64,000 bases of DNA from Patescibacteria group bacterium. Its GTDB lineage: Bacteria; Patescibacteriota; Patescibacteriia; UBA1558; GWA2-36-10. Shown here one piece after another: positions 7,429-64,000 of the stretch. The stretch spans positions 4,155 through 68,154 of the forward strand of contig JBAZSG010000006.1 in NCBI GenBank assembly GCA_041662585.1, in the 5' to 3' direction. The notes under the pieces were generated by a model. The model did not search any database and was not told the origin of the DNA. It worked only from the letters and a program-made list of their open reading frames with translations. Position numbers and translations under genes: made by a program. Position 1 is the stretch's first letter, and each line of letters opens with the position of its first letter.

Positions 7429-7855
7429 ATAAAATTTTTATAGTTCATTTTAATAATTAATTTATAATCCCATCGCGACGTGGCTGATTTAGTCCATCAG
7501 GGGCGTCATATAGTCTGAGGATATTTAGTTTTTGTTCCCATGCACGAATGAAAACTAGTATCCCTAGATTATCGCCTAATCGCGCGCGAAATAGGGATTA
7601 GTTTATAACTTGCTATAGAGGGTTATAAACACAACACTCTTGTCGTTGGGCCCTGCCCGGCACAAGATTTTAATTAACGTTCCTAGACAATCTATTTTTT
7701 CAGATGGATTTGTGAGCCTATTTATTTAGTTAACCAGAAAGGTCGGCATGGCAATGCCGTGGGTGCTAGATATAATAGTCTGAGCCTCCATATGGTGGAG
7801 ACGTTTGCAAATTGTCTTATTAAATAATGTTTAGAGAACTTTTAAAACCGAACAA
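7429..7855 (+). other. GC-enriched structured intergenic region: candidate long 5' leader or unclassified ncRNA upstream of the S-layer-like gene
   Basis: 427 bp with no ORF; contains several strong hairpins (ATCCCTA..TAGGGAT 7560-7600; GTTTATAAC..GTTATAAAC 7601-7630; GGCAT-GGCA-ATGCC 7746-7759; CTCCA..TGGAG 7785-7799) and a TATAAT at 7771-7776. Confidence 0.3.
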
Positions 7856-10800
7856 ATGAGTTTAATAAAAAAACTTTTTGTGTTTTCCTTGGTAATTACC
7901 ACTGTCCTATCATTTAATCCTTTTAATGTTAAGGCAGCCGGTAGTTATGGAGCAGGATCACTTCTTGCTCTACAAGGCGTACAAGGTTCAGCCGTTTATT
8001 ATATTGGTTCAGATGGAATGAAATATGTCTTCCCTGATTCAAAAACATATGCTACTTGGTATGACAATTTTAACGATGTTGTTAGAGTTGACGTAGCTGA
8101 GTTAGACATGTATCCAGACGGCGGAGCTATGACTTATCGTGCTGGTACCAAATTGGTAACTCACGAAAACACAGCCAAAATTTATGCCGTAGGTCCTGGT
8201 GGATTACTTCACTGGATTCCTACAGCAGAAATAGCTGAAGATTTATATGGAGCAAACTGGGCATCTAGAGTACTAGACGTAATTCCAGGATACTTCTCTT
8301 CAAGCTATGTTTCAGGCGCTGATTTATCTGATATGTATCCAAGTGGTACATTATTGCAAATGGGCGAAAACATGTACTATGTAGATGGTACAAGTGTAAG
8401 ACCTTTTGCTGATGCTGATGCCTTTGAAGCAAACAACTTTGCTTATGGTAACTTAATCACAGTTACTAGCGTTTCAGCTTATACATCAGGTACATCAATC
8501 ACTGGTGAAGAGACTGCCCTATCTGGCTTTATGCCAGCTGAAGGCAGTGGTCCAGTTGTCTCAGGTGGCAACTTGACAGTAGCTATTGCTAGTGGCACTC
8601 CAGCCTCTGGAATGGTTGTAGGTGGTGCAGCTCGCGTACCATTTACCAAATTAGCTTTGACTACTGGTAGTCAAGGTGTAACCATTGATACAATGGTTGT
8701 ACAAAGAGGCGGAATTGGTCAAGATGGTGCTTTTGATAGTATCGATATTTTAGATGGTACTACAATGCTTCCATATGATGCCAATTCAAAAACCTTCAAT
8801 TCAAATCACCAAGCTACATTTACCAAAGATTTGGTAATTCCAGCTAATACCACTAAGTATGTTTACTTAGCTGCTAATATGGTTTCTCAGACTACTATTG
8901 GTACTTCTTATGCTGGAGAAGCTCCAGCTCTAGGATTAGCAGCCGTTACTTTAGTTGGAAGTGGTTCAGTAGGCGGTTCATTACCAGTTTATGGTAATAC
9001 TCAAACCTTAAATGGAACCATTGCTATTGGTACCGTTGGAATCCAAAGAGGTTCTTATGGAAATGCCACTTCAACTTCAATTGAAGTTGGTAAAACTGAT
9101 TACACTTTCTTCTCATTTCAAGTAAATCCTTCTTCTGTAGAAGATGTAACTTTCAACCAAGTAGCTGTTTACCAAGAAGGTACAGCAGTATTGGGTGATG
9201 ACATCACCAACATTGAACTGTTAAAAGATGGTGTGAAGGTTGCTGATGGTGTTGTCGATGGTAAGTACGTTACTTTTAGTGGTATTAATACTGTTATTCC
9301 AAAAGGACAAACTTATCAATATGCAGTTAGAGCTGATGTTGACGGCGGTTCACTTAGAACAGTAGACTTGGGTATATATCGCACTACCGATTTATTGGTA
9401 ACTGGTAATACTTATGGTTATAACATCACTCCAAGTTATAGTGGAGCTGGTTCATCATATACTAGTTCTTCAGTTTATAACAAACCAGTATTAAGTGATA
9501 ATCAATTTACCATGTCAAATGGTACTTTGACTGTTGAAAGAGGTAATATAGTTGGTTCTGAAAACATTACCCTTGGTAATGATCAAACATTAGGATCATT
9601 CAAATTCACTGTAAAAGGCGAAGAAATTGATGTTACTGCTTTGACTTTGACAATAGCTTCTTCTGCAACCGCTACTATTGAAGATGCTTTGGCTGGTGTA
9701 AAATTAGTTGATAGCAACGGTACTACCGTAGCTGGTCCAACTGATGTTACCAACAATGCACTTACAGTTGCCTTTACTGACACATTTACTTTACCAGTTG
9801 GTGAAAGTGAATATAAAGTAGTAGGTAATATTGCTAACAATGGTGGTTGGGCAGCTAATGATACTATTTATGCTAGCATCAGTACTCCAGCAACAGCTAT
9901 TACAGCCACTGGTGTTATTACTGGCAATAGTATTACTTCTGGTACAGCCACAGCTATTAATACAAATACCCAGACAGTTAAAGCTGCTTCTTTGACCGTA
10001 ACCAAAGATACCCTACCAACTACAAGCACCGTTATCGCTGGTGCTCAAGATGTAGTATTGGGTTCTTGGACATTTGATACTACAAATTCAGGAGAAGATA
10101 TCAGAATTACATCTTTGGTATTTGCTGCTTCTTCAACAGATGCTACTAACCTAACTGTATATAATGGCGTTTATGGTAGTGGTGGAGTTGCAATGAGCCC
10201 AATTAATTCTGCTCCAACAGTTGCTGATGGTGCTTCTTCAACCTTTGCTTTTGATGAACCAATAGTTATTACCAAGAAGACAAGTAAAACTATCCAATTG
10301 GTAGGTGATATCAATAGTAGTGCTACTACTGGACAAAGTGCTCAATTTGGTTTGACCGATGTAACAGCAGCTACCAACGCTTCAGTTGTAGCTTATGGTG
10401 TAACTACTGGAAATAGAGCTACATTATCTCTTACTGCTGATAATGGTGCTACACTTACTTATTCAGCCGCTGGCGCTGTTACTGTAAGTACATACAACAA
10501 TCCATCAAATGCTATTGCTAGAGCAGGTGCTACTGGCGTTACATTTGGCAGTGTCAAGCTAGATGCTCTATATGAAAATCTAGATTTAGACCAATTGATT
10601 GTTTATGTTGCTGACGGTGCTTTGACTGGTACAGCTACTGGTAATTATGCTGATGTCAACAAAGTATACATTTATGATGGTACTACTTTGTTAGCTTCAA
10701 ATGCTATCCCATCAACTGGTTTGTATACATTCAACTTTGACAATGGTACTTTGACTGTCCCTGTAGACGGTTCAAAGACTTTGACAATCAAAGCTGACTT

Positions 10801-23004: not shown

Positions 23005-24829
23005 TTTTAGGGATGAAAATCTGATCAAGCAGATGAACAACAAAATCAAACATCGAGGTCCTGATGATTTGGGTGTTTTTTTGGATGATATTTTTTCTTT
23101 GGGGCATGTTAGATTATCTATTATTGATTTGTCCCAGCGTGGGCATCAGCCTATGTTTAGTAGCGATAAAAATTATATTATTATCTATAATGGTGAGCTG
23201 TACAATTTTGAAAAAATAAAAAAAGATTTAAAATCAAAGGGATTTAAGTTTACTTCAAATACAGATACGGAGGTAATTTTAAATTCTTATATTGCTTATG
23301 GGGAAAAATGTTTAGATAAGTTTAATGGTATATTTTCATTTGCTATCTTCGACAAAAAAAAGAAGAAGCTTTTTGCAGCTCGTGACCATTTTGGAGTGAA
23401 ACCATTTTTTTATTATTTCAAAGATAATAAATTTATTTTTTCATCAGAGATAAAAAGTATTTTAGAACACAATGTTGATAAAAGTTTAGATTTTGATTCT
23501 CTTAATTTATATTTTAGGTTTTTGTATATTGCTGGTCCTAGAACTATTTTTAAAAATATAAAAAAATTACAAGCTAGTCATTATTTGATTTTGCAAAATA
23601 ATAAATTGGAAATTAAAAGGTATTATCGTGTACCACAAGAAAAAAAAGATTTTTCTTTTCCTGAAGCCAAAGAAATCATCAGAACAAATTTTGACAAGGC
23701 CGTGGAAAGACAACTGATATCAGATAGACCATTGGGGCTGTATTTGAGCGGAGGTATTGATTCAACAGCTATATTGGGCTCAATGTCAAAGCTTGTCAAT
23801 CATAAAATAAAGACTTTTACAGTAAAATTTGATACTAAGATAGAAGAAGATAAATTTAATATTGATAGTCAGTTGGCTAAAAAAACTAGCGATTATTATA
23901 AAACAGATCATTATGAATTATTGGTAAAACCAAAAGAAGTAGCAGAAAATTTGGAAAAGGTAATTTATCATATGGATGACTTAGTTTCTAATCATACTCA
24001 AACAGCTACTTATTTATTATCTAAATTAGCCAAAGGACAAGTGGCTGTAGTTTTGGGGGGTGATGGAGGAGATGAAATATTTGGTGGTTATGAAAGGCAC
24101 TATTATTATAATTTGATAGATAAATTTCAAAAAATACCAAAAATAATTAGAGACAATTATATAAACAAATCTTTGTCCAATGCTTTTGGTAGGCAAGATA
24201 TTTATAATAAGTTAAATACAAAAAATGAATTTGATTTATTTTGGCAATTTAGAGCTCAAAAAGAAAAAATGGTAAAAAGATTTTTGAAATCAGATATTAT
24301 CAATTTGGATAATACAAAACAAATTTTAAAAACTCAATATTTTTCTAAAAACTCAAAAAGCTATATGGATTATTTGATGATGGTAGATTTGGATACTTGG
24401 TTGGTAGATGAGTCACTTACTAGATCAGATAAACTCACTATGGCTTTTGGTCTTGAAGAGCGAGTGCCAATTCTTGATAAAGACTTGGTTGAGACAGCTT
24501 TTGCTATACAATCTAGCTATAAGATAAGAAATAAATATCAAGGTAAATATATTTTTAAAGAAGCAGTAAAAGATTATTTACCAGATTATATTTATGACAA
24601 ATCAAAGACAGGTTGGTTTTCTCCAGCGGCCAAGTGGCTTCGTACAGATCTCAAAGATTTGGCTTATCAGACATTAGCCAATGATTATAATCCAGACACT
24701 AGTGAATTTTTTGATTTTGATGAAATCAGAAAAATATTGGACAATCATATAGATAAAAAAGAGTATGCTTTAAATACCATATGGTCATTGATAACTTTTC
24801 AGATTTGGTATAAACTTTTTAAACAATAA
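22982..24829 (+). CDS. asparagine synthase (glutamine-hydrolysing)-family amidotransferase (AsnB-like)
   Basis: 615 aa; starts 'MCGI' (Ntn-amidotransferase Cys2); 'DLSQRGHQPM'; PP-loop 'LYLSGGIDSTAI'. Confidence 0.8.
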   Translation: MCGINGFNFRDENLIKQMNNKIKHRGPDDLGVFLDDIFSLGHVRLSIIDLSQRGHQPMFSSDKNYIIIYNGELYNFEKIKKDLKSKGFKFTSNTDTEVILNSYIAYGEKCLDKFNGIFSFAIFDKKKKKLFAARDHFGVKPFFYYFKDNKFIFSSEIKSILEHNVDKSLDFDSLNLYFRFLYIAGPRTIFKNIKKLQASHYLILQNNKLEIKRYYRVPQEKKDFSFPEAKEIIRTNFDKAVERQLISDRPLGLYLSGGIDSTAILGSMSKLVNHKIKTFTVKFDTKIEEDKFNIDSQLAKKTSDYYKTDHYELLVKPKEVAENLEKVIYHMDDLVSNHTQTATYLLSKLAKGQVAVVLGGDGGDEIFGGYERHYYYNLIDKFQKIPKIIRDNYINKSLSNAFGRQDIYNKLNTKNEFDLFWQFRAQKEKMVKRFLKSDIINLDNTKQILKTQYFSKNSKSYMDYLMMVDLDTWLVDESLTRSDKLTMAFGLEERVPILDKDLVETAFAIQSSYKIRNKYQGKYIFKEAVKDYLPDYIYDKSKTGWFSPAAKWLRTDLKDLAYQTLANDYNPDTSEFFDFDEIRKILDNHIDKKEYALNTIWSLITFQIWYKLFKQ

Positions 24830-35798: not shown

Positions 35799-37663
35799 TG
35801 TGTGGAATTACTGGTTATCTTGGTAAAGGTAATCAAGATATATTAGAGAAAATGACAAATAGTCTTTATCACAGAGGTCCTGATGATAAAGGTTTTTTAT
35901 TGGAAGAAAATTTGGGTATGGGACATCGTCGTTTATCAATTATTGATTTGAGTGATTCAGGACGGCAGCCAATGACTAACGAAGATGGATCAATTATAAT
36001 AGTTTTAAATGGTGAGATCTATAATTATCAAGAATTAAAAGAACAATTAAAAAATCAACATAAATTTAAGAGTCAAACTGATACGGAAGTTATTATTCAT
36101 CTTTATGAAGAGATTGGCACAGAAGTTTTTTCTAAATTAAATGGAATGTTTGCGATTGCTTTGTATGACAAGAAAAGAAAAAAAATAATATTATCTAGAG
36201 ATAGATTTGGTAAAAAACCACTATATTGGGGAATTTTTAATGAAACATTTTTGTTCTCTTCAGAGTTAAAGTCATTTTTAAATCATCCGTCTTTTAAAAA
36301 AGAATTAAATATAGAGGCTCTTAATAAATATTTACAATATGAGTATGTGCCGACACCGCATGCGATTTTTAAAGGAGTATATAAATTAGAGCCAGGATAT
36401 TACTTAGAATATGATTCTAAAAATATAAAAAAGGAAAAATTTTGGGATATTCATTTTGAAAAATCTGACCTTACTTTTAATGAGTCTTTAGAAAAGTTAG
36501 ATTATGAAATGAATAGAGCAACAAAAATTAGAATGATGAGTGATGTGCCTTTGGGGGTATTTTTAAGTGGAGGTATAGATAGTAGTATTATTGCTTATTA
36601 CGCACAAAAAAATAGTCAGCAAAAAATAAAAACTTTTTCTATTGGTTTTAAAGAAAAAAGTTTTGATGAATCAAATTATGCTCGTCAGGTAGCTAGATAT
36701 TTAGGCACCGAACATCATGAACAAATTTTAAGTGCCAAAGATTCTCTAGATTTTATTCCAAAAATTGCAGATTTGTTGGATGAACCAATGTCTGATTCAT
36801 CTATTGTACCAACTTATTTATTATCTAAATTTACCAAAGAACATGTTACAGTTGCTTTGGGTGGAGATGGTGGGGATGAATTATTGTTGGGTTATGATAC
36901 TTTCGTAGCCCAGCGCTATGCAGATATATATGACAAGGTACCGTTTTTTATTCGTCAATTGATAACTAAGACAGTTACAAGTTTGCCAACATCTTTTTCT
37001 AATATGTCTTTAGATTTTAAAATAAAAAAATTTACCAAAGATTTTGAAGATAATAAAAATTACAGACATCAACGTTGGTTAGGTTCTTTTGACAAACAGA
37101 GTCGTAGTAATTTATTTACAAATAATATTTGGCAAGATTTGAAAAATAAAAATGAATTTAACGATGTTGATAACTATTTAGATAGTATATCCAAATTAGA
37201 TAAATATCAGAAATTAATTTATTTATATTTAAGAACTTACATGTTAGACGATATTTTAGTAAAAGTAGATAGAGCTAGCATGTTTAATGCACTGGAAGTT
37301 AGGGCGCCGTTTTTGGACTATCAAGTAGCAGATTTAATTAATTCTATGCCAATTAATTTTAAATTAAAAGGAACTAAAACAAAATATATACTTAAAAAAT
37401 TAATGGATGGCAAGCTGCCTCAAAATATTATTTATCGTAAAAAGAAAGGTTTTGGTATGCCAATAGCTGATTGGTTGAATAATGATTTAAAATCATTAGC
37501 ACAAGAACTATTAAATTCTGAAAGAATAAAAAGAGAGGGCTTATTTGATTATAAATATGTAGAGAGGTTATTAGAAGGACATTTTGATCACAAACAAGAT
37601 AATCGTAAATTAATTTGGACTCTTATGGTATTTGAAATGTGGCGTGAAAAATGGTTTAATTAA
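35798..37663 (+). CDS. second asparagine synthase (glutamine-hydrolysing)-family amidotransferase
   Basis: 621 aa; 'MCGITGY', 'DLSDSGRQPM', PP-loop 'VFLSGGIDSSII'. Confidence 0.8.
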   Translation: MCGITGYLGKGNQDILEKMTNSLYHRGPDDKGFLLEENLGMGHRRLSIIDLSDSGRQPMTNEDGSIIIVLNGEIYNYQELKEQLKNQHKFKSQTDTEVIIHLYEEIGTEVFSKLNGMFAIALYDKKRKKIILSRDRFGKKPLYWGIFNETFLFSSELKSFLNHPSFKKELNIEALNKYLQYEYVPTPHAIFKGVYKLEPGYYLEYDSKNIKKEKFWDIHFEKSDLTFNESLEKLDYEMNRATKIRMMSDVPLGVFLSGGIDSSIIAYYAQKNSQQKIKTFSIGFKEKSFDESNYARQVARYLGTEHHEQILSAKDSLDFIPKIADLLDEPMSDSSIVPTYLLSKFTKEHVTVALGGDGGDELLLGYDTFVAQRYADIYDKVPFFIRQLITKTVTSLPTSFSNMSLDFKIKKFTKDFEDNKNYRHQRWLGSFDKQSRSNLFTNNIWQDLKNKNEFNDVDNYLDSISKLDKYQKLIYLYLRTYMLDDILVKVDRASMFNALEVRAPFLDYQVADLINSMPINFKLKGTKTKYILKKLMDGKLPQNIIYRKKKGFGMPIADWLNNDLKSLAQELLNSERIKREGLFDYKYVERLLEGHFDHKQDNRKLIWTLMVFEMWREKWFN

Positions 37664-54831: not shown

Positions 54832-56076
54832 ATGCGTTTTGACTTTAGAATATGGTTTGGGACTTTGCAAGCATTAAAGCGTAATAAAATGCGCTCTTTT
54901 TTGACTTCACTGGGGATTGTCATTGGTATCTCTTCTGTAGTTATCATCATGTCTCTTGGAGCAGGAGCACAGAGTTTGGTGGTCAATCAAATACAAGGTA
55001 TAGGTGGTGACTTATTGGCTATACTTCCAGGAGCTAGTGATGATGATGGTCCACCAGCATCAGTGATGGGTATTAGTATTACTACTTTGACCACTGAAGA
55101 TTTGCAAGCTATAGAAGAAAGAGTACCAGAAGTTACAGCTGCAGCAGCTTATGTCAGAGGGACAGCTATTGCTTCTTGGCAAAACAAAGTAGATGATACT
55201 AGTTTTTTGGGTACAACGGGCAATTATATGCAAGTAGAAGAAGGCGCAGAGCTCATAGCTGGTCATTTTTTTTCGGAAGATGAAGCCAATTCTATTAGTA
55301 AAGTAGCTGTTCTTGGTTATAGTGTAGCCGAAGAATTATTCAATGGAAATATAGACCCCATTGGTGAGCGTATTAAAATAAACAAAGAATCTTTTAAAAT
55401 AATAGGTGTAATGGCCGAAAGAGGAACGGCTGGTTTTCAAGATCAAGATGATCAAATATTTATACCCATCACCACTGCTCAAAAGTTAATGTTGGGTATT
55501 AATTATCTTACTTTTGGTAGAGCCAAGGTAACTCAAGGGGCAGATATTGATTTTGTAATTGAAGAAGTGGTTGATGTTTTGCGGGATAGGCATGGTATAG
55601 ACAATCCCCAAGAAGATGATTTTTCGGTCAGATCATCTGAATCAACTTTAAATACTTTAAATAGCATTACGGATGCCCTAAATTATTTTTTAGGCATGGT
55701 AGCTGGGATTTCTTTAATAGTTGGTGGAATTGGTATTATGAATATTATGCTTGTTTCAGTATCAGAGAGTACCAAAGAAATAGGTCTTAGAAAGGCAGTG
55801 GGAGCAACTAGAAGAGATATTAGTATCTATTTTTTGGTGCAAACGATCATCTTGACATTATTAGGGGGTATCATAGGAATATTTTGGGGAATACTAGTGT
55901 CATTTTTGGCTAGTGTTATAGCCAATGCTTTGGGCTATGATTGGAATTTTGTAGTATCAGTAGTCTCTATTGTTATTTCTCTGATATTTACTATCATAGT
56001 TGCTTTAGCTTTTGGTTGGTATCCAGCCAAAAAAGCTGCCGATTTAAATCCAATTGAAGCTCTTCGTTATGAATAA
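54832..56076 (+). CDS. ABC transporter permease, FtsX/MacB-type (MacB_PCD + FtsX domains)
   Basis: 414 aa; N-terminal TM, large extracytoplasmic domain, C-terminal FtsX-like 3-TM bundle ('EIGLRKAVGATRRDI'). Confidence 0.8.
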   Translation: MRFDFRIWFGTLQALKRNKMRSFLTSLGIVIGISSVVIIMSLGAGAQSLVVNQIQGIGGDLLAILPGASDDDGPPASVMGISITTLTTEDLQAIEERVPEVTAAAAYVRGTAIASWQNKVDDTSFLGTTGNYMQVEEGAELIAGHFFSEDEANSISKVAVLGYSVAEELFNGNIDPIGERIKINKESFKIIGVMAERGTAGFQDQDDQIFIPITTAQKLMLGINYLTFGRAKVTQGADIDFVIEEVVDVLRDRHGIDNPQEDDFSVRSSESTLNTLNSITDALNYFLGMVAGISLIVGGIGIMNIMLVSVSESTKEIGLRKAVGATRRDISIYFLVQTIILTLLGGIIGIFWGILVSFLASVIANALGYDWNFVVSVVSIVISLIFTIIVALAFGWYPAKKAADLNPIEALRYE

Positions 56077-56079
56077 TTT

Positions 56080-57315
56080 ATGAAATTAATTACTACCACA
56101 AAAATAGCTTTAGTTGCTCTAAATAAAAATAGAATCAGGACTTTTTTGACTATTTTGGGAGTAATGATTGGTATTTCTTCAGTGACAGTCATCATTTCAG
56201 CTGGTGATAGTATTAGAGCTTTGGTTCAGAATCAAGTATCTAGCTTTGGTTCGGATTTTATACAAACAGAAGTGAGAGTCCCATCTTCAGGAGGTGGAGT
56301 AGCTAGTCAAGCTCAAGGTATAGCTATAACCACAATGAAAGATAGTGATAGGGAAGATATATTGGAATTACCATATATATCCAAAGCCTATTCAGCTATT
56401 ACTGCTCAAGAAGTTATTTCTTGGCAAGGAGAGATAAAAAAATCTTTGATCTATGGAGTGACCGAAGATTATATCAATATTGATAGTACAGAAATAGCTG
56501 AAGGTAGATTTTTTACCGATGAAGAAGGTGATTCTTTGGCTAGAGTAGTAGTGTTAGGTGCCAAAGTCAAAGAAGATTTATTTGGCTCCAGTCCAGCAAT
56601 TGGACAAAATGTAAAAATTCATAAACAAAATTACAAAGTAGTTGGTGTAGCAGCTTCAAGAGGAGCAGTATTCTTTTTTGATTTTGATGATTTAGTATAT
56701 ATTCCATTAAAAACTACTCAAAAATTAATATTGGGTATAGATCATGTTTTATCTATTACTTCTCAATTGTCTGATCCAAGTCGTGAAGATGAGATGGTCA
56801 ATGCTATAGAAAATATAATGAGAGCAAATCATGATATTGATAATCCAGATAGAGATGATTTTGAAGTAGCTTCTATGGCTGATGCTCAAGATTTACTCAA
56901 TACTATCATTGGTGGTATTACTTTATTATTGGTAGCTCTAGCAGCTGTATCACTAGTAGTCGGTGGAGTAGGTATTATGAATATCATGTATGCTACAGTC
57001 TCTGAGAGAACCTTTGAAATAGGTCTTCGTAAAGGAGTGGGAGCTAGTAAAAAAGATATTTTGCAACAATTTTTAGCTGAAGCAGTAGTCATTACTTTAT
57101 GGGGTGGTATTTTTGGTATAATTTTGGGCATTGTATTTATATATGCTGTTTATATAATAGCCAATAAATATAAGCTAGATTGGAGCTTTTCTATATCAAT
57201 ATTAGGTCTAATACTAGCCTTGGGCTTTTCGGTGGCTGTAGGGCTTGTTTTTGGCCTTTATCCAGCCAAAAAAGCCGCTGAGTTGGATCCAATTACTGCT
57301 CTGCGAAGGGAATAG
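56080..57315 (+). CDS. ABC transporter permease, FtsX/MacB-type (paralog)
   Basis: 411 aa; same architecture ('EIGLRKGVGASKKDI'). Confidence 0.8.
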   Translation: MKLITTTKIALVALNKNRIRTFLTILGVMIGISSVTVIISAGDSIRALVQNQVSSFGSDFIQTEVRVPSSGGGVASQAQGIAITTMKDSDREDILELPYISKAYSAITAQEVISWQGEIKKSLIYGVTEDYINIDSTEIAEGRFFTDEEGDSLARVVVLGAKVKEDLFGSSPAIGQNVKIHKQNYKVVGVAASRGAVFFFDFDDLVYIPLKTTQKLILGIDHVLSITSQLSDPSREDEMVNAIENIMRANHDIDNPDRDDFEVASMADAQDLLNTIIGGITLLLVALAAVSLVVGGVGIMNIMYATVSERTFEIGLRKGVGASKKDILQQFLAEAVVITLWGGIFGIILGIVFIYAVYIIANKYKLDWSFSISILGLILALGFSVAVGLVFGLYPAKKAAELDPITALRRE

Positions 57316-62343: not shown

Positions 62344-62396
62344 TCCTTGACTTTTTCTTGATTTTTATTTATAATTTATTCCGTTATTTATATATT

Positions 62397-62700: not shown

Positions 62701-62750
62701 ATGGGATATGGATTATTGAAAAGATTAAAATTTTTATAAACACTTGGTAG

Positions 62751-62824
62751 GGGGGAGTATTTCAGTGGTAGAATGCTGGTCTCCAAAACCAGCGACGAGG
62801 GTTCGATTCCTTCCTCCCCTGCCA
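62751..62824 (+). tRNA. tRNA-Trp (anticodon CCA)
   Basis: Hand-folded: acceptor GGGGGAG/CTCCCCT (G1-U72 wobble), anticodon arm CTGGT-CTCCAAA-ACCAG (34-36 = CCA), T-arm GAGGG-TTCGATT-CCTTC, discriminator G, CCA encoded; closely resembles canonical bacterial tRNA-Trp. Confidence 0.8.
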
Positions 62825-62827
62825 AAT

Positions 62828-62918
62828 GTTTAGAAGATAGTTTGGTCTCCATCCAGCCCCTCGCGAGGGGCTGGATCCAAAACCTCTAGCGTGGGTCCGA
62901 TTCCTACCGCCCCTGCCA
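62828..62918 (+). pseudogene. degenerate tRNA-Trp copy lacking a 5' acceptor strand, with a 26-bp perfect GC-rich palindrome (ATCCAGCCCCTCGCGAGGGGCTGGAT, 62851-62876) where the CCA anticodon should be
   Basis: D-arm-like GTTTAGAAGATAG, anticodon-stem/loop halves GGTCTCCA | palindrome | TCCAAAACCTC, variable TAGC, T-arm GTGGG-TCCGATT-CCTAC, acceptor 3' strand CGCCCCT-G-CCA; starts only 3 nt after the intact tRNA-Trp CCA. Confidence 0.45.
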
Positions 62919-62973
62919 AAAGAGCAAGATATTCAGTATCTTGTTTTTTTGATATACTAAATATATTAAAATT
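62913..62973 (+). repeat. 61-bp direct repeat, copy A (terminator-like hairpin CAAGATA-loop-TATCTTG + T7 + promoter-like GATATACTAAAtATATTAAAATT)
   Basis: 54/61 identical to 63836..63896; differences confined to the hairpin loop (TTCAGT vs GTTATT) and one T/G. Confidence 0.8.
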
Positions 62974-62980
62974 ATATATT

Positions 62981-63319
62981 ATGAAAGAAATAAATTGGAA
63001 AGATTTTGATAAGGTTGAAGTAAGAGTGGGGACTATTATAGAAGTAGAAGATTTTCCGGAAGCTAAGATACCGGCTTATAAAATAAAAGTCGATTTTGGT
63101 AATGAAATTGGGATTAAAAAATCAAGTGCTAGAATTACAAATTTATATACAAAAGAAGAATTGTTAAATAAAAAAATAATTGCTGTAGTTAATTTTCCAC
63201 CAAAACAGATTGGTCCATTTGTTTCTGAATTTCTTTGCGCTGGTTTTTATAGGAAAGATGGTACAGTGGTATTAGCAGTTCCAGATAAAGATATTCCCAA
63301 TGGCAGTAAACTTGGTTAA
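62981..63319 (+). CDS. tRNA-binding domain protein (CsaA/Trbp111-like, EMAP/Myf fold)
   Basis: 112 aa from the ATG at 62981 ('[40 protein letters not shown]...'). The track's 62891 start runs through the pseudo-tRNA and repeat and is not used. Confidence 0.6.
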
Positions 63320-63338
63320 TTTTTTATATAAAATATTA

Positions 63339-63368
63339 GGGTAGAAGTCGTGGCTTCTACCCTTTTTT
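63339..63368 (+). terminator. rho-independent terminator (GGGTAGAAG-TCGTGG-CTTCTACCC + TTTTTT)
   Basis: 9-bp perfect stem plus T6 immediately after the tRNA-binding protein gene. Confidence 0.75.
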
Positions 63369-63382
63369 GATTGTTGCGAATC

Positions 63383-63607
63383 TTACGGACAAATGCTATT
63401 AGCATCAGGTACCGTAAAAGATGATACTCTAATTTGACCAACTGGGAGATCTACGTTTACTCCCTGTGCTCTAAGATATGGCGTAGCATGATCTGCCGAG
63501 ACATAAATCTCTTTAGCTTTTACACCGGCTTTAATTAGAGCAGTGGTCAGATCAGCTAAGTCATGCTGATCAGCAACAATAACTAAACGTTTGACGGCCA
63601 TAGCCAT
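63383..63607 (-). CDS. small hypothetical protein encoded in a locally GC-enriched patch
   Basis: 74 aa (MAMAVKRLVIVADQHDLADLTTALIKAGVKAKEIYVSADHATPYL...); GC visibly higher than the flanks; no confident family assignment. Confidence 0.35.
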   Translation of the reverse strand: MAMAVKRLVIVADQHDLADLTTALIKAGVKAKEIYVSADHATPYLRAQGVNVDLPVGQIRVSSFTVPDANSICP

Positions 63608-63835
63608 CCTCCAATCTTAAAAACTAATCACCTTGATTGATGATTAGTTTTTTATATCTTTCTATATTTTTTAGAATTTTAAGAACGCCACAAAAAGCTA
63701 ATCACCATGGATAGCTTTGGTAGCGGTTGGTTTGTTCTTAAAATATTTCTCATAAGTCTATATATTACTACATTTTTACAAAATGTCAATTTAATAATTT
63801 TTATCAAAAAATCTTCCAACTTCGTCCCACAATCT

Positions 63836-63896
63836 CTGCCAAAAGAGCAAGATAGTTATTATCTTGTTTTTTTGATATACTAAAGATATTAAAATT
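63836..63896 (+). repeat. 61-bp direct repeat, copy B
   Basis: See copy A; located just upstream of the lipoprotein gene start. Confidence 0.8.
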
Positions 63897-63909: not shown

Positions 63910-64000
63910 ATGAAAAAACTACTTATTATCTTATTTTTACCTATTTTTATTAGTGGTTGTTTTAATGGCTCTGGCGTGGGTAAAACTGAAAAATTTTCTA
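63910..64000 (+). CDS. putative lipoprotein, 5' part only (runs off window)
   Basis: MKKLLIILFLPIFISGCFNGSG...: signal peptide with lipobox-like FISGC. Confidence 0.5.
   Translation, partial: MKKLLIILFLPIFISGCFNGSGVGKTEKFS

Follow-up and report, generated by a model that had tools for sequence, protein, structure and literature searches.

Introduction

tRNA-linked islets carry their cargo beside the 3′ end of a tRNA gene, between direct repeats that include this 3′ end; the tRNA is either kept functional or replaced, presence varies among relatives, and older remnants lie nested at the site. Sublocation classes are said to have been laid out by Williams in NAR in 2002 for tRNA-gene-linked islets and for integrative elements flanked by directly repeated att sites. 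The same features are found at the tRNA-Trp locus described here, which lies near the end of a 64,000-nucleotide stretch (the window; contig JBAZSG010000006.1 of GenBank assembly GCA_041662585.1, positions 4,155 to 68,154) from a Komeilibacteria-like bacterium of the Candidate Phyla Radiation (CPR). Two direct repeats, copy A and copy B, enclose csaA, which encodes a stand-alone tRNA-binding protein, and a convergent small gene, orf74. We identify the feature as a tRNA-linked insertion scar, a variant of this well-known kind, and favour with moderate confidence the explanation that the csaA–orf74 block was inserted at a tRNA-Trp-proximal recombination hotspot, leaving the flank duplicated on either side, without an integrase.

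As in tRNA-targeting elements, the insertion lies at the 3′ part of the tRNA (copy A starts inside tRNA-Trp, 62902–62918) and the flanking repeats contain the tRNA 3′ segment; an integrase at one end is missing. No integrase or recombinase Pfam family was detected on the called genes from 10 kb upstream of the locus to 10 kb downstream, a span that includes the sequence just beyond the window, in which an earlier note on this DNA had suggested that such a gene be sought. Unlike tRNA-linked islets, the locus has a cargo of just 0.85 kb that is native in composition and includes a gene of housekeeping type, its repeat runs 55 nt past the tRNA into a terminator and a promoter, and relatives have other small cargo between copies of this module.

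Integron cassettes and the pdif modules of Acinetobacter also resemble the locus: they are units of one or two genes with a repeated imperfect-palindrome site, gathered at one platform and varying in cargo. Unlike integrons, the locus has no IntI or other recombinase within 10 kb, and its site is a 7–9-bp hairpin followed by T7, without attC-type features (no attC-specific model was run). Unlike the cassettes of either system, those found here carry their own promoters, and they may point either way. In pdif modules the flanking sites are inverted relative to each other, whereas the module copies described here are direct, and a Xer/dif site is not indicated: there is no terminus signal, and copies A and B have different central sequences.

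The locus documents turnover of gene order at one tRNA-Trp site in ultra-small CPR genomes with no integrase nearby, and the occurrence of the same module around different cargo in three genomes makes it a concrete locus for studying gene gain in the CPR. The recurrence of the module, an orf74 leader that lies outside Rfam 15 and a putative GIY-YIG-linked replacement of tRNA-Trp lift it above the routine.

A duplicated terminator–promoter module

In a self-BLAST of the window, the repeat pair scores 95 bits (E = 1e-19) and ranks second among all self-matches and first among the non-coding ones; the best scores obtained with 20 Markov-1 random sequences were 34–41 bits. The 61-bp direct repeats reported in the earlier note at 62913–62973 and 63836–63896 are thus present, with an identity of 57/61 in place of the 54/61 given there. 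The ungapped match runs 11 nt further left into sequence resembling a tRNA 3′ end, giving 63 identical positions out of 72 (62902–62973 versus 63825–63896), with 11 of 17 identical in the tRNA-derived part and 52 of 55 in the rest. The tRNA 3′-end-like part ends in CTGCCA in both copies. An 18-mer, CTGCCAAAAGAGCAAGAT, links the tRNA end to the terminator twice in the window and also in the related genome L004, and tRNA 3′-end remnants adjoin both window copies and the proximal L004 copy. As a phage or plasmid attP, the 18-mer was rejected, viral contigs having given one chance match.

Both copies fold as an A-tract, a hairpin and a U-run, with −16.3 and −15.6 kcal/mol when the A-tract/U-tract extension is included, and each is a predicted intrinsic terminator, with a stable hairpin followed directly by the U-run. 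The earlier note had described compensating stems and different loops; the loops do differ (TTCAG versus GTTAT), and the stems are the same in both copies (CAAGATA/TATCTTG). The T7 run and promoter-like AT box that it saw in each copy are found, the latter as a TG-extended TATACT, and these −10 boxes probably act as promoters. Its further statement that each repeat directly precedes a gene start agrees with our annotation, in which the ATG after copy A is that of csaA (62981) and the ATG after copy B is that of a gene for a 404-aa protein (63910). The coordinates of all features are collected in the table.

Features of the tRNA-Trp locus, in window coordinates
Feature	Position	Strand	Details
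GIY-YIG endonuclease gene, 3′-end remnant	62707–62739	+	reads YGLLKRLKFL*; directly upstream of intact tRNA-Trp
Intact tRNA-Trp (CCA), copy 1	62751–62824	+	ARAGORN; Rfam tRNA model, 63.4 bits
Disrupted tRNA-Trp, probable original, copy 2	62832–62918	+	D-arm remnant, anticodon stem-loop, T arm, acceptor 3′ strand with CCA
GC-rich perfect palindrome, 26 nt, arms ATCCAGCCCCTCG and CGAGGGGCTGGAT	62851–62876	.	in copy 2 anticodon loop
Repeat copy A	62902–62973	+	tRNA-Trp 3′ end (to 62918), terminator 62917–62951, TG-extended −10 box
Copy A −10 element	TG 62950–62951; TATACT 62953–62958	+	
csaA, stand-alone 112-aa tRNA-binding protein, Trbp111/CsaA type	62981–63319	+	PF01588, NCBIfam
Bidirectional intrinsic terminator common to convergent csaA and orf74	63338–63363	.	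two-strand terminator scan
orf74, small protein, uncharacterised family	63383–63607	−	homologue searches
orf74 promoter and structured 5′ leader	63608–63789	−	promoter scan, folding, alignment
orf74 Shine–Dalgarno sequence GGAGG	63612–63608	−	
orf74 leader, terminator hairpin and U-run	63619–63653	−	12–14 bp; A-rich linker before it
orf74 leader, long imperfect hairpin	63677–63743	−	apical hairpin 63695–63717 (AAGCUA...UAGCUU)
orf74 promoter	−35 TTGACA 63789–63784; −10 TAATAT 63767–63762	−	16-nt spacer; scan 10/12
Repeat copy B	63825–63896	+	decayed tRNA 3′-end remnant, terminator hairpin, T7 63867–63873, TG-extended −10 box
Copy B tRNA 3′-end remnant TCCCACAATCTCTGCCA	63825–63841	+	more decayed than that of copy A
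Copy B −10 box TATACT	63876–63881	+	
404-aa lipoprotein-like gene, start	63910–64000, runs off window	+	

Within the 64-kb window, the hairpin/T7/TGATATACTAAA motif occurs in just these two copies and no third copy of the hairpin/T-run/TGATATACT motif was found; with no further copy there, a dispersed repeat family was rejected as the identity of the module. Some 2.5 kb past the window end (L001 13538–13563), the genes for the M23 peptidase and the spermine-synthase-like protein are separated by a bidirectional terminator whose stem weakly resembles the module (ACAAGAT...ATCCTG followed by T7), which hints that this hairpin type may recur across the genome.

The module brackets different cargo in relatives

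By DnaJ (83–84% identity), the nearest species representatives are a metagenome-assembled genome (MAG) named 'Patescibacteria group' (L003) and one named 'Candidatus Komeilibacteria' (L004). Both are collinear with the window through dnaK–dnaJ–tRNA-Thr–rpmG–tRNA-Trp, and collinearity resumes at the SDR and M23 genes in L003 and at the FKBP gene in L004. csaA, orf74 and the 404-aa gene are absent from the syntenic interval in both. The comparison with related genomes that the earlier note had proposed therefore bears out its suspicion of an inserted 0.9-kb segment to the extent that this segment is missing at the locus in L003 and L004, and the csaA–orf74 block displays the presence/absence polymorphism among relatives that characterizes islands.

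Each of these genomes holds a module pair of its own, at 8654–8679 and 9608–9633 around an EamA transporter gene in L003, and at 9343–9368 and 9751–9776 around a 410-bp GC-rich segment with a 54-aa open reading frame (ORF) in L004. One more copy was found on the metagenome contig L094, with a decayed tRNA remnant to its left and a GC-rich cassette to its right. Module copies are 81–91% alike within one genome and 66–81% between the three genomes, and the closer similarity within genomes fits separate duplications tied to each cargo. In L004 the module is preceded by ATCGTCCCACCCGTCTCGCCA, a decayed remnant like that of copy B, and L094 has another; an orthologous terminator occurs once downstream of the L003 tRNA-Trp. 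Among 67 matches to CTGCCAAAAGAGCAAGAT in metagenome contigs, 64 arose by chance; the real ones are L069 and L078 (both the same as L004) and L094.

Nearly all the DNA between the repeats (62966–63791) is found elsewhere as one block at ~75–80% nucleotide identity, comprising csaA, the common terminator, orf74, its leader and its promoter. The block is intact in L108/L109 (75% over 859 nt), L038, L112 and L115, in other neighbourhoods, none of which has a tRNA. We interpret csaA–orf74 as a pre-existing unit that was placed at tRNA-Trp because the same block is intact at these unrelated sites, and we conclude that cargo between module copies turns over since relatives hold different cargo at their module pairs and the block elsewhere. 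In L037, an HD-domain gene precedes the orf74 unit in place of csaA, and the right-hand neighbour, a zinc-finger gene, is the same as in L108. In L038, a T-run and GGTATACTAAATAT, the promoter half of the module, precede csaA. No empty donor site was recognised, as the block neighbours in L108, L112, L115 and L037 have no homologues in the 73 kb examined.

The L037 and L038 Logan contigs both end inside one terminator hairpin (ATCGCCCTAAAGGCGAT, a T-run and GGTATACTA), and between this hairpin and the orf74 unit lies the HD-domain gene in L037 versus csaA in L038, which suggests module-bounded cargo swapping in that population too. In addition, segments with orphan minus-strand ORFs start immediately after a module copy in L003 (9645–11180), L004 (9375–9720) and L094 (1615–1712). 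The L003 segments have 52–58% GC, compared with ~32–37% for the genomes, and the orphan ORFs of L003 and L004 have AT-rich TTGACA promoters; unlike the window cargo, these segments look like truly foreign cassettes.

The cargo is native in composition

The product of csaA matches the Trbp111/CsaA proteins over the whole PF01588 domain (1–96 of 96; 1.5e-15, 57.5 bits against a cutoff of 27) and an NCBIfam equivalog, with 173.7 bits for NF007493 (cutoff 160) and 155.3 bits for TIGR02222 (cutoff 119.65), in agreement with its prior description as a tRNA-binding protein gene with its own terminator. That terminator (63338–63363) proves to be bidirectional, with 11 pairs on the plus strand and 10 on the minus strand, 5 of them G–C in each case, and −16.8 kcal/mol; it is kept in L037, L038 and L108. 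We retrieved 7992 csaA homologues at E ≤ 1e-10, the best 120 of which are 68–88% identical and come mainly from Patescibacteria; those listed, mostly 70–88% identical, span many CPR lineages, and some bear the names Falkow-, Uhr-, Nomura- and Gracilibacteria. As a gene, csaA is of housekeeping type and conserved in Patescibacteria, and the protein is ordinary; its location alone is unusual.

The opposite-strand 74-aa ORF that had been placed in a patch of higher GC does lie in one, as orf74 has 41.8% GC against 31.9% for the window (96.7th percentile). The excess is located in codon positions 1 and 2, and GC at third codon positions (GC3) is 25% in orf74, 15% in csaA and 21–22% in dnaK and dnaJ (dnaK, 22%). 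We ascribe the patch to the amino-acid composition of the encoded protein, an outcome that the earlier note had named as telling against its reading and that here tells against the foreign-DNA part of it. A foreign origin of the patch was rejected on the basis of this GC3 value and of the GC content of the whole inter-repeat segment, which at 32.1% stands at the 51st percentile of the window. The suggestion that the repeats had captured foreign DNA consequently fails, since the composition of the segment is native and csaA is conserved across Patescibacteria; the atypical composition or codon usage characteristic of island cargo is not seen in csaA–orf74.

Origin of the duplicated flank

In the explanation that we favour, the repeat unit would be the native downstream flank of tRNA-Trp, consisting of the last ~17 nt of the tRNA, a terminator (A-tract, 7–9-bp hairpin and T7) and a TG-extended −10 promoter. 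A pre-existing block of csaA and the convergent orf74 would have been inserted between the tRNA-Trp gene and this flank by recombination inside the flank, with one flank copy left on each side in a Campbell-type, attL/attR-like outcome, as would result if a module on incoming DNA crossed over once with the resident one. Copy A would end the rpmG/tRNA-Trp transcript and give csaA a promoter, and copy B would stop read-through from the left and give the 404-aa gene a promoter. The duplication was presumably produced by the insertion event itself. At 36–72 nt in the three genomes, it exceeds by far what a transposase would leave as a target duplication. Homology between module copies carried on DNA from relatives (RecA-type), rather than a dedicated integrase, is the most likely driver of the exchange, and we favour it because csaA of L038 already has the promoter half of the module in front of it; an integrase acting in trans, or since lost, is a possible driver. 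Of the earlier proposal of an integration at the tRNA-Trp 3′ end, the insertion is retained, given the variable cargo and the tRNA remnants in both repeats, and the integrase-type element is not. In this view, the site is a recurrent recombination hotspot and not the scar of a single phage.

Several observations weigh against this explanation. The longest runs of perfect identity within the repeat are 19 and 25 nt, rather little for RecA to act on efficiently. Just left of CTGCCA, ~6 of 11 nt are identical, versus 57/61 from CTGCCA on, and the two parts of the repeat may differ in age because the tRNA remnant of copy B is far more decayed than the adjoining module. Gene conversion could also imitate a recent duplication of the module. 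The module hairpin is weak by the criteria of our consensus terminator scan, which has a threshold of at least 3 G–C pairs; its stem has 2, which is why both module hairpins are missing from the scan list. Both copies carry TG-A-TATACT, a TG-extended −10 element, and lack a good −35 element. Neither a recombination intermediate nor an enzyme was identified. An empty-site allele of the same species was not found, so that insertion is preferred to loss or replacement in the relatives on grounds of parsimony.

A decayed integrase-mediated islet would leave a similar picture: an attP comprising the tRNA-Trp 3′ end and its flank would have integrated, the repeats would be attL and attR, and the integrase and most of the element would since have been deleted. 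Direct repeats with tRNA 3′-end sequence do adjoin the tRNA gene, cargo varies among relatives, and tRNA-Trp 3′ remnants are nested in the window, L004 and L094, as from successive integrations. We nevertheless consider this origin unlikely, since an integrase is missing from the 10 kb flanking either side in the window genome and from the listed ORFs that follow dnaJ in L003 and L004, and nine cargo and neighbour proteins compared with Pfam matched just GIY-YIG and EamA. The cargo, moreover, is a conserved housekeeping-type CPR gene pair of native composition, the same block is found elsewhere in relatives without att-like repeats, and the junction sequence is present in no viral contig. Three independent decays to a single small gene, each with both repeats intact, would also be a coincidence.

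The exact occurrence of two modules in each of three genomes, around different cargo of 0.4–0.95 kb, raises the question of a cassette platform, in which the module would be an integron-like or Xer/dif-module-like site that, with a recombinase encoded elsewhere, captures small promoter-bearing cassettes beside tRNA-Trp. The greatest similarity of the copies within a genome, the imperfect palindrome of dif-like size at the module core (~11+6+11 nt) and the GC-rich orphan cassettes that begin directly after the module in L003, L004 and L094 are in line with this idea, which we find quite doubtful all the same: the loops TTCAG and GTTAT differ, which would be unexpected had Xer-type sites been exchanged recently, the duplicated stretch varies in length by genome (72, ~40 and ~36 nt), and the element resembles an ordinary terminator with a T7 tail. 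No recombinase was identified, and no other module copy lies in the 64-kb window, the one weakly similar terminator being that at L001 13538–13563. GC skew is positive throughout 73 kb with no switch, and this lack of a sign change leads us to reject a chromosomal dif or terminus at this site. It is accordingly improbable that the module is the site of a previously unrecognised cassette-capture platform, an integron analogue served by a recombinase elsewhere or driven by homology after DNA uptake, and equally so that its cassettes include both native genes (csaA–orf74) and GC-rich genes from other organisms. An ancestral arrangement, with csaA–orf74 always at this place, the terminator–promoter duplicated locally and the block lost or replaced in relatives, is very unlikely. 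A regulatory role for the module is plausible at both places and synteny is generally poor among these genomes, but the block is found in at least four other contexts in relatives, two of which have the zinc-finger gene as right neighbour, both copies include a tRNA 3′ remnant, and L003 and L004 have their own module pairs around unrelated cargo. Finally, the short L037 and L038 Logan contigs break exactly inside the equivalent terminator, so that such modules can confuse assemblers; still, an assembly artefact joining two strain variants at a common terminator sequence is extremely improbable here. Two assembly records, ENA ERZ27249449 and GCA_041667165.1, have the identical arrangement: the window is identical to part of the 702-kb ENA contig, the 213-kb GenBank MAG contig has the same order and differs at 2 of 2000 positions, and copies that differ at 4 of 61 positions are not collapsed repeats.

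A second tRNA-Trp and a GIY-YIG remnant

The tRNA-Trp pseudo-copy to which the earlier note saw copy A fused is real, and it appears to be the original gene. This copy 2 (62832–62918) is a pseudogene without the 5′ acceptor strand, and it gave no ARAGORN call and no Rfam tRNA match at E ≤ 1. The 43 nt of its 3′ part (62876–62918) are 95% identical to the L003 tRNA-Trp and 80% identical to copy 1. The intact copy 1 is just 75% identical to the L003 gene and differs from its relatives by paired changes in all stems. Judged by these alignments, copy 2 would be the original tRNA-Trp and copy 1 its replacement.

The sequence upstream of copy 1 points to how it may have arrived. Window positions 62708–62824 align without gaps to L003 8432–8548 (75% over 117 nt, E = 1e-16), which comprises the end of an 81-aa GIY-YIG ORF (PF01541, 1.4e-13; C-terminus HGLLKRIKVL*) and tRNA-Trp; the reading frame of the remnant was compared with that of L003 by eye. 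In L003 (8078–8548), the GIY-YIG gene sits between a 5′ fragment of tRNA-Trp and the intact tRNA-Trp. Just the last ~10 codons remain in the window, and L004 has neither the tRNA-Trp fragment nor the GIY-YIG gene. By analogy, a homing-endonuclease gene may have travelled together with the replacement tRNA-Trp. A comparable case is SegB of phage T4, reported as a free-standing GIY-YIG homing endonuclease gene in a tRNA gene cluster (PMC2330249). The L003 gene, a candidate for such a role, is similar in sitting immediately before tRNA-Trp, with a disrupted copy on one side and an intact one on the other, and differs in being on a bacterial chromosome and in encoding a minimal 81-aa catalytic domain. 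A search for a viral source of the replacement tRNA-Trp or the GIY-YIG gene gave nothing useful.

tRNA-Trp would thus have been replaced by a second copy travelling with a GIY-YIG gene, and the displaced copy holds a GC palindrome in its anticodon loop. This palindrome (62851–62876) is bordered by TCCA on both sides and occurs once in the window. It belongs to a family, CCAG-N4-TCGCGA-N4-CTGG, that is found twice in the disrupted tRNA-Trp fragment of L003 (8112–8133 and 8149–8170), has arms differing by paired changes and is confined, among the loci examined, to displaced or disrupted tRNA-Trp copies. A group I intron was rejected as the cause of the split tRNA-Trp, as tRNA-Trp is unmentioned in PMC13011429 and no intron-sized insert is present here. 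A second tRNA is affected by a partial 5′ duplication in L003 (7623–7800): about 100 nt before the real tRNA-Thr gene lies another copy of its promoter and of its first ~12 nt (GTCACCCTAGCT, followed by an insert).

orf74 and its structured leader

The true start of orf74 is probably the second ATG at 63601, which lies 6 nt past GGAGG and yields a protein of 72 aa. We found 6 close homologues, and 33 clusters among 1.84 billion representative proteins. Members of the family (P0127–P0157) are 70–90 aa long, with invariant G28 and G57, a conserved N-terminal region of ~60 aa and a hypervariable tail that is sometimes Cys-rich and nearly always ends in Val/Ile/Gly-Pro. ORF74 has no match in Pfam, NCBIfam, PDB sequences or a fold search, for which an AlphaFold2 model with a predicted local distance difference test (pLDDT) score of 83 was used (an earlier model built from 6 sequences had reached 50).

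The two hairpins sharing a motif that the earlier note had detected between the repeats are part of the orf74 leader. The plus-strand motif CTAATCACC is present at 63624–63632 and 63698–63706, and in the minus-strand RNA both occurrences correspond to identical 9-mers, GGUGAUUAG, one in the apical hairpin and the other in the 3′ arm of the terminator. Each GGUGAUUAG copy is predicted to be able to pair with CUAAUCAUC, which would set up a choice between terminator and antiterminator. The window leader folds with −38.9 kcal/mol (z = −4.2).

The leader occurs in the window, L037, L038, L108, L112, L115, L116, L117 and L118, and these nine sequences, three of them distant (L116–L118), make up our alignment A7. 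The terminator helix is 100% paired across the nine, with one A–U to G–C compensatory pair in 3 sequences, the single instance of covariation in the leader, and the alternative (antiterminator) pairing is 98.8% paired. Among close relatives the leader is 86–92% identical, compared with 58–80% for the ORF and 83–84% for csaA, and in the distant L116–L118 it is 68–74% identical. A simple closing helix for the sensing domain was rejected, since it holds in the six close sequences and breaks in L116–L118, and a pseudoknot tried by hand was inconsistent.

Like attenuation riboswitches and protein-binding leaders, the orf74 leader is structured, has a terminator just before the Shine–Dalgarno sequence and can form exclusive pairings through its duplicated 9-mer. 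Unlike known leaders, it belongs to no Rfam 15 family: none of 4227 families matched it above chance level, either in the window or in five related loci (E ≥ 0.28). Its structured domain is too invariant for proof by covariation. A covariance model (R1) recovered just its training sequences in the ~300 kb examined. Outside Rfam 15 and more conserved than its gene, the leader is a candidate attenuator and a candidate new cis-regulatory RNA of Patescibacteria, as judged from folding and alignment. It may respond to a small molecule or to its own gene product, ORF74; the latter, autoregulation, also fits because the leader is found just upstream of one small protein family.

Neighbouring genes and other differences between the genomes

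The 10 kb upstream of the locus contain MacB-type ABC transport genes and hrcA–grpE–hsp20–dnaK–dnaJ. In the 10 kb downstream of the window are encoded the 404-aa protein, an SDR, an M23 peptidase, a spermine-synthase-like protein, FKBP, a cupredoxin, a dockerin and radical-SAM proteins. The 404-aa protein matches no Pfam or NCBIfam family, and its N-terminus has a weak lipobox-type match.

Other self-similarities in the window, 69–79% identical, comprise 23055–24093 versus 35874–36897, ~12.8 kb apart, and 55715–55888 versus 56954–57128, which lie within two adjacent MacB/FtsX-type permease genes. In L003 (7111–7611) and L004 (7126–7626), dnaJ and tRNA-Thr are separated by an isopentenyl-diphosphate isomerase gene, idi (NCBIfam NF002995, 166 bits); it is missing from the window, where the tRNA-Thr promoter directly follows dnaJ (62344–62396). 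L004 also has a 124-aa orphan ORF between idi and the tRNA-Thr promoter (7753–8127), with no counterpart in the window or in L003.

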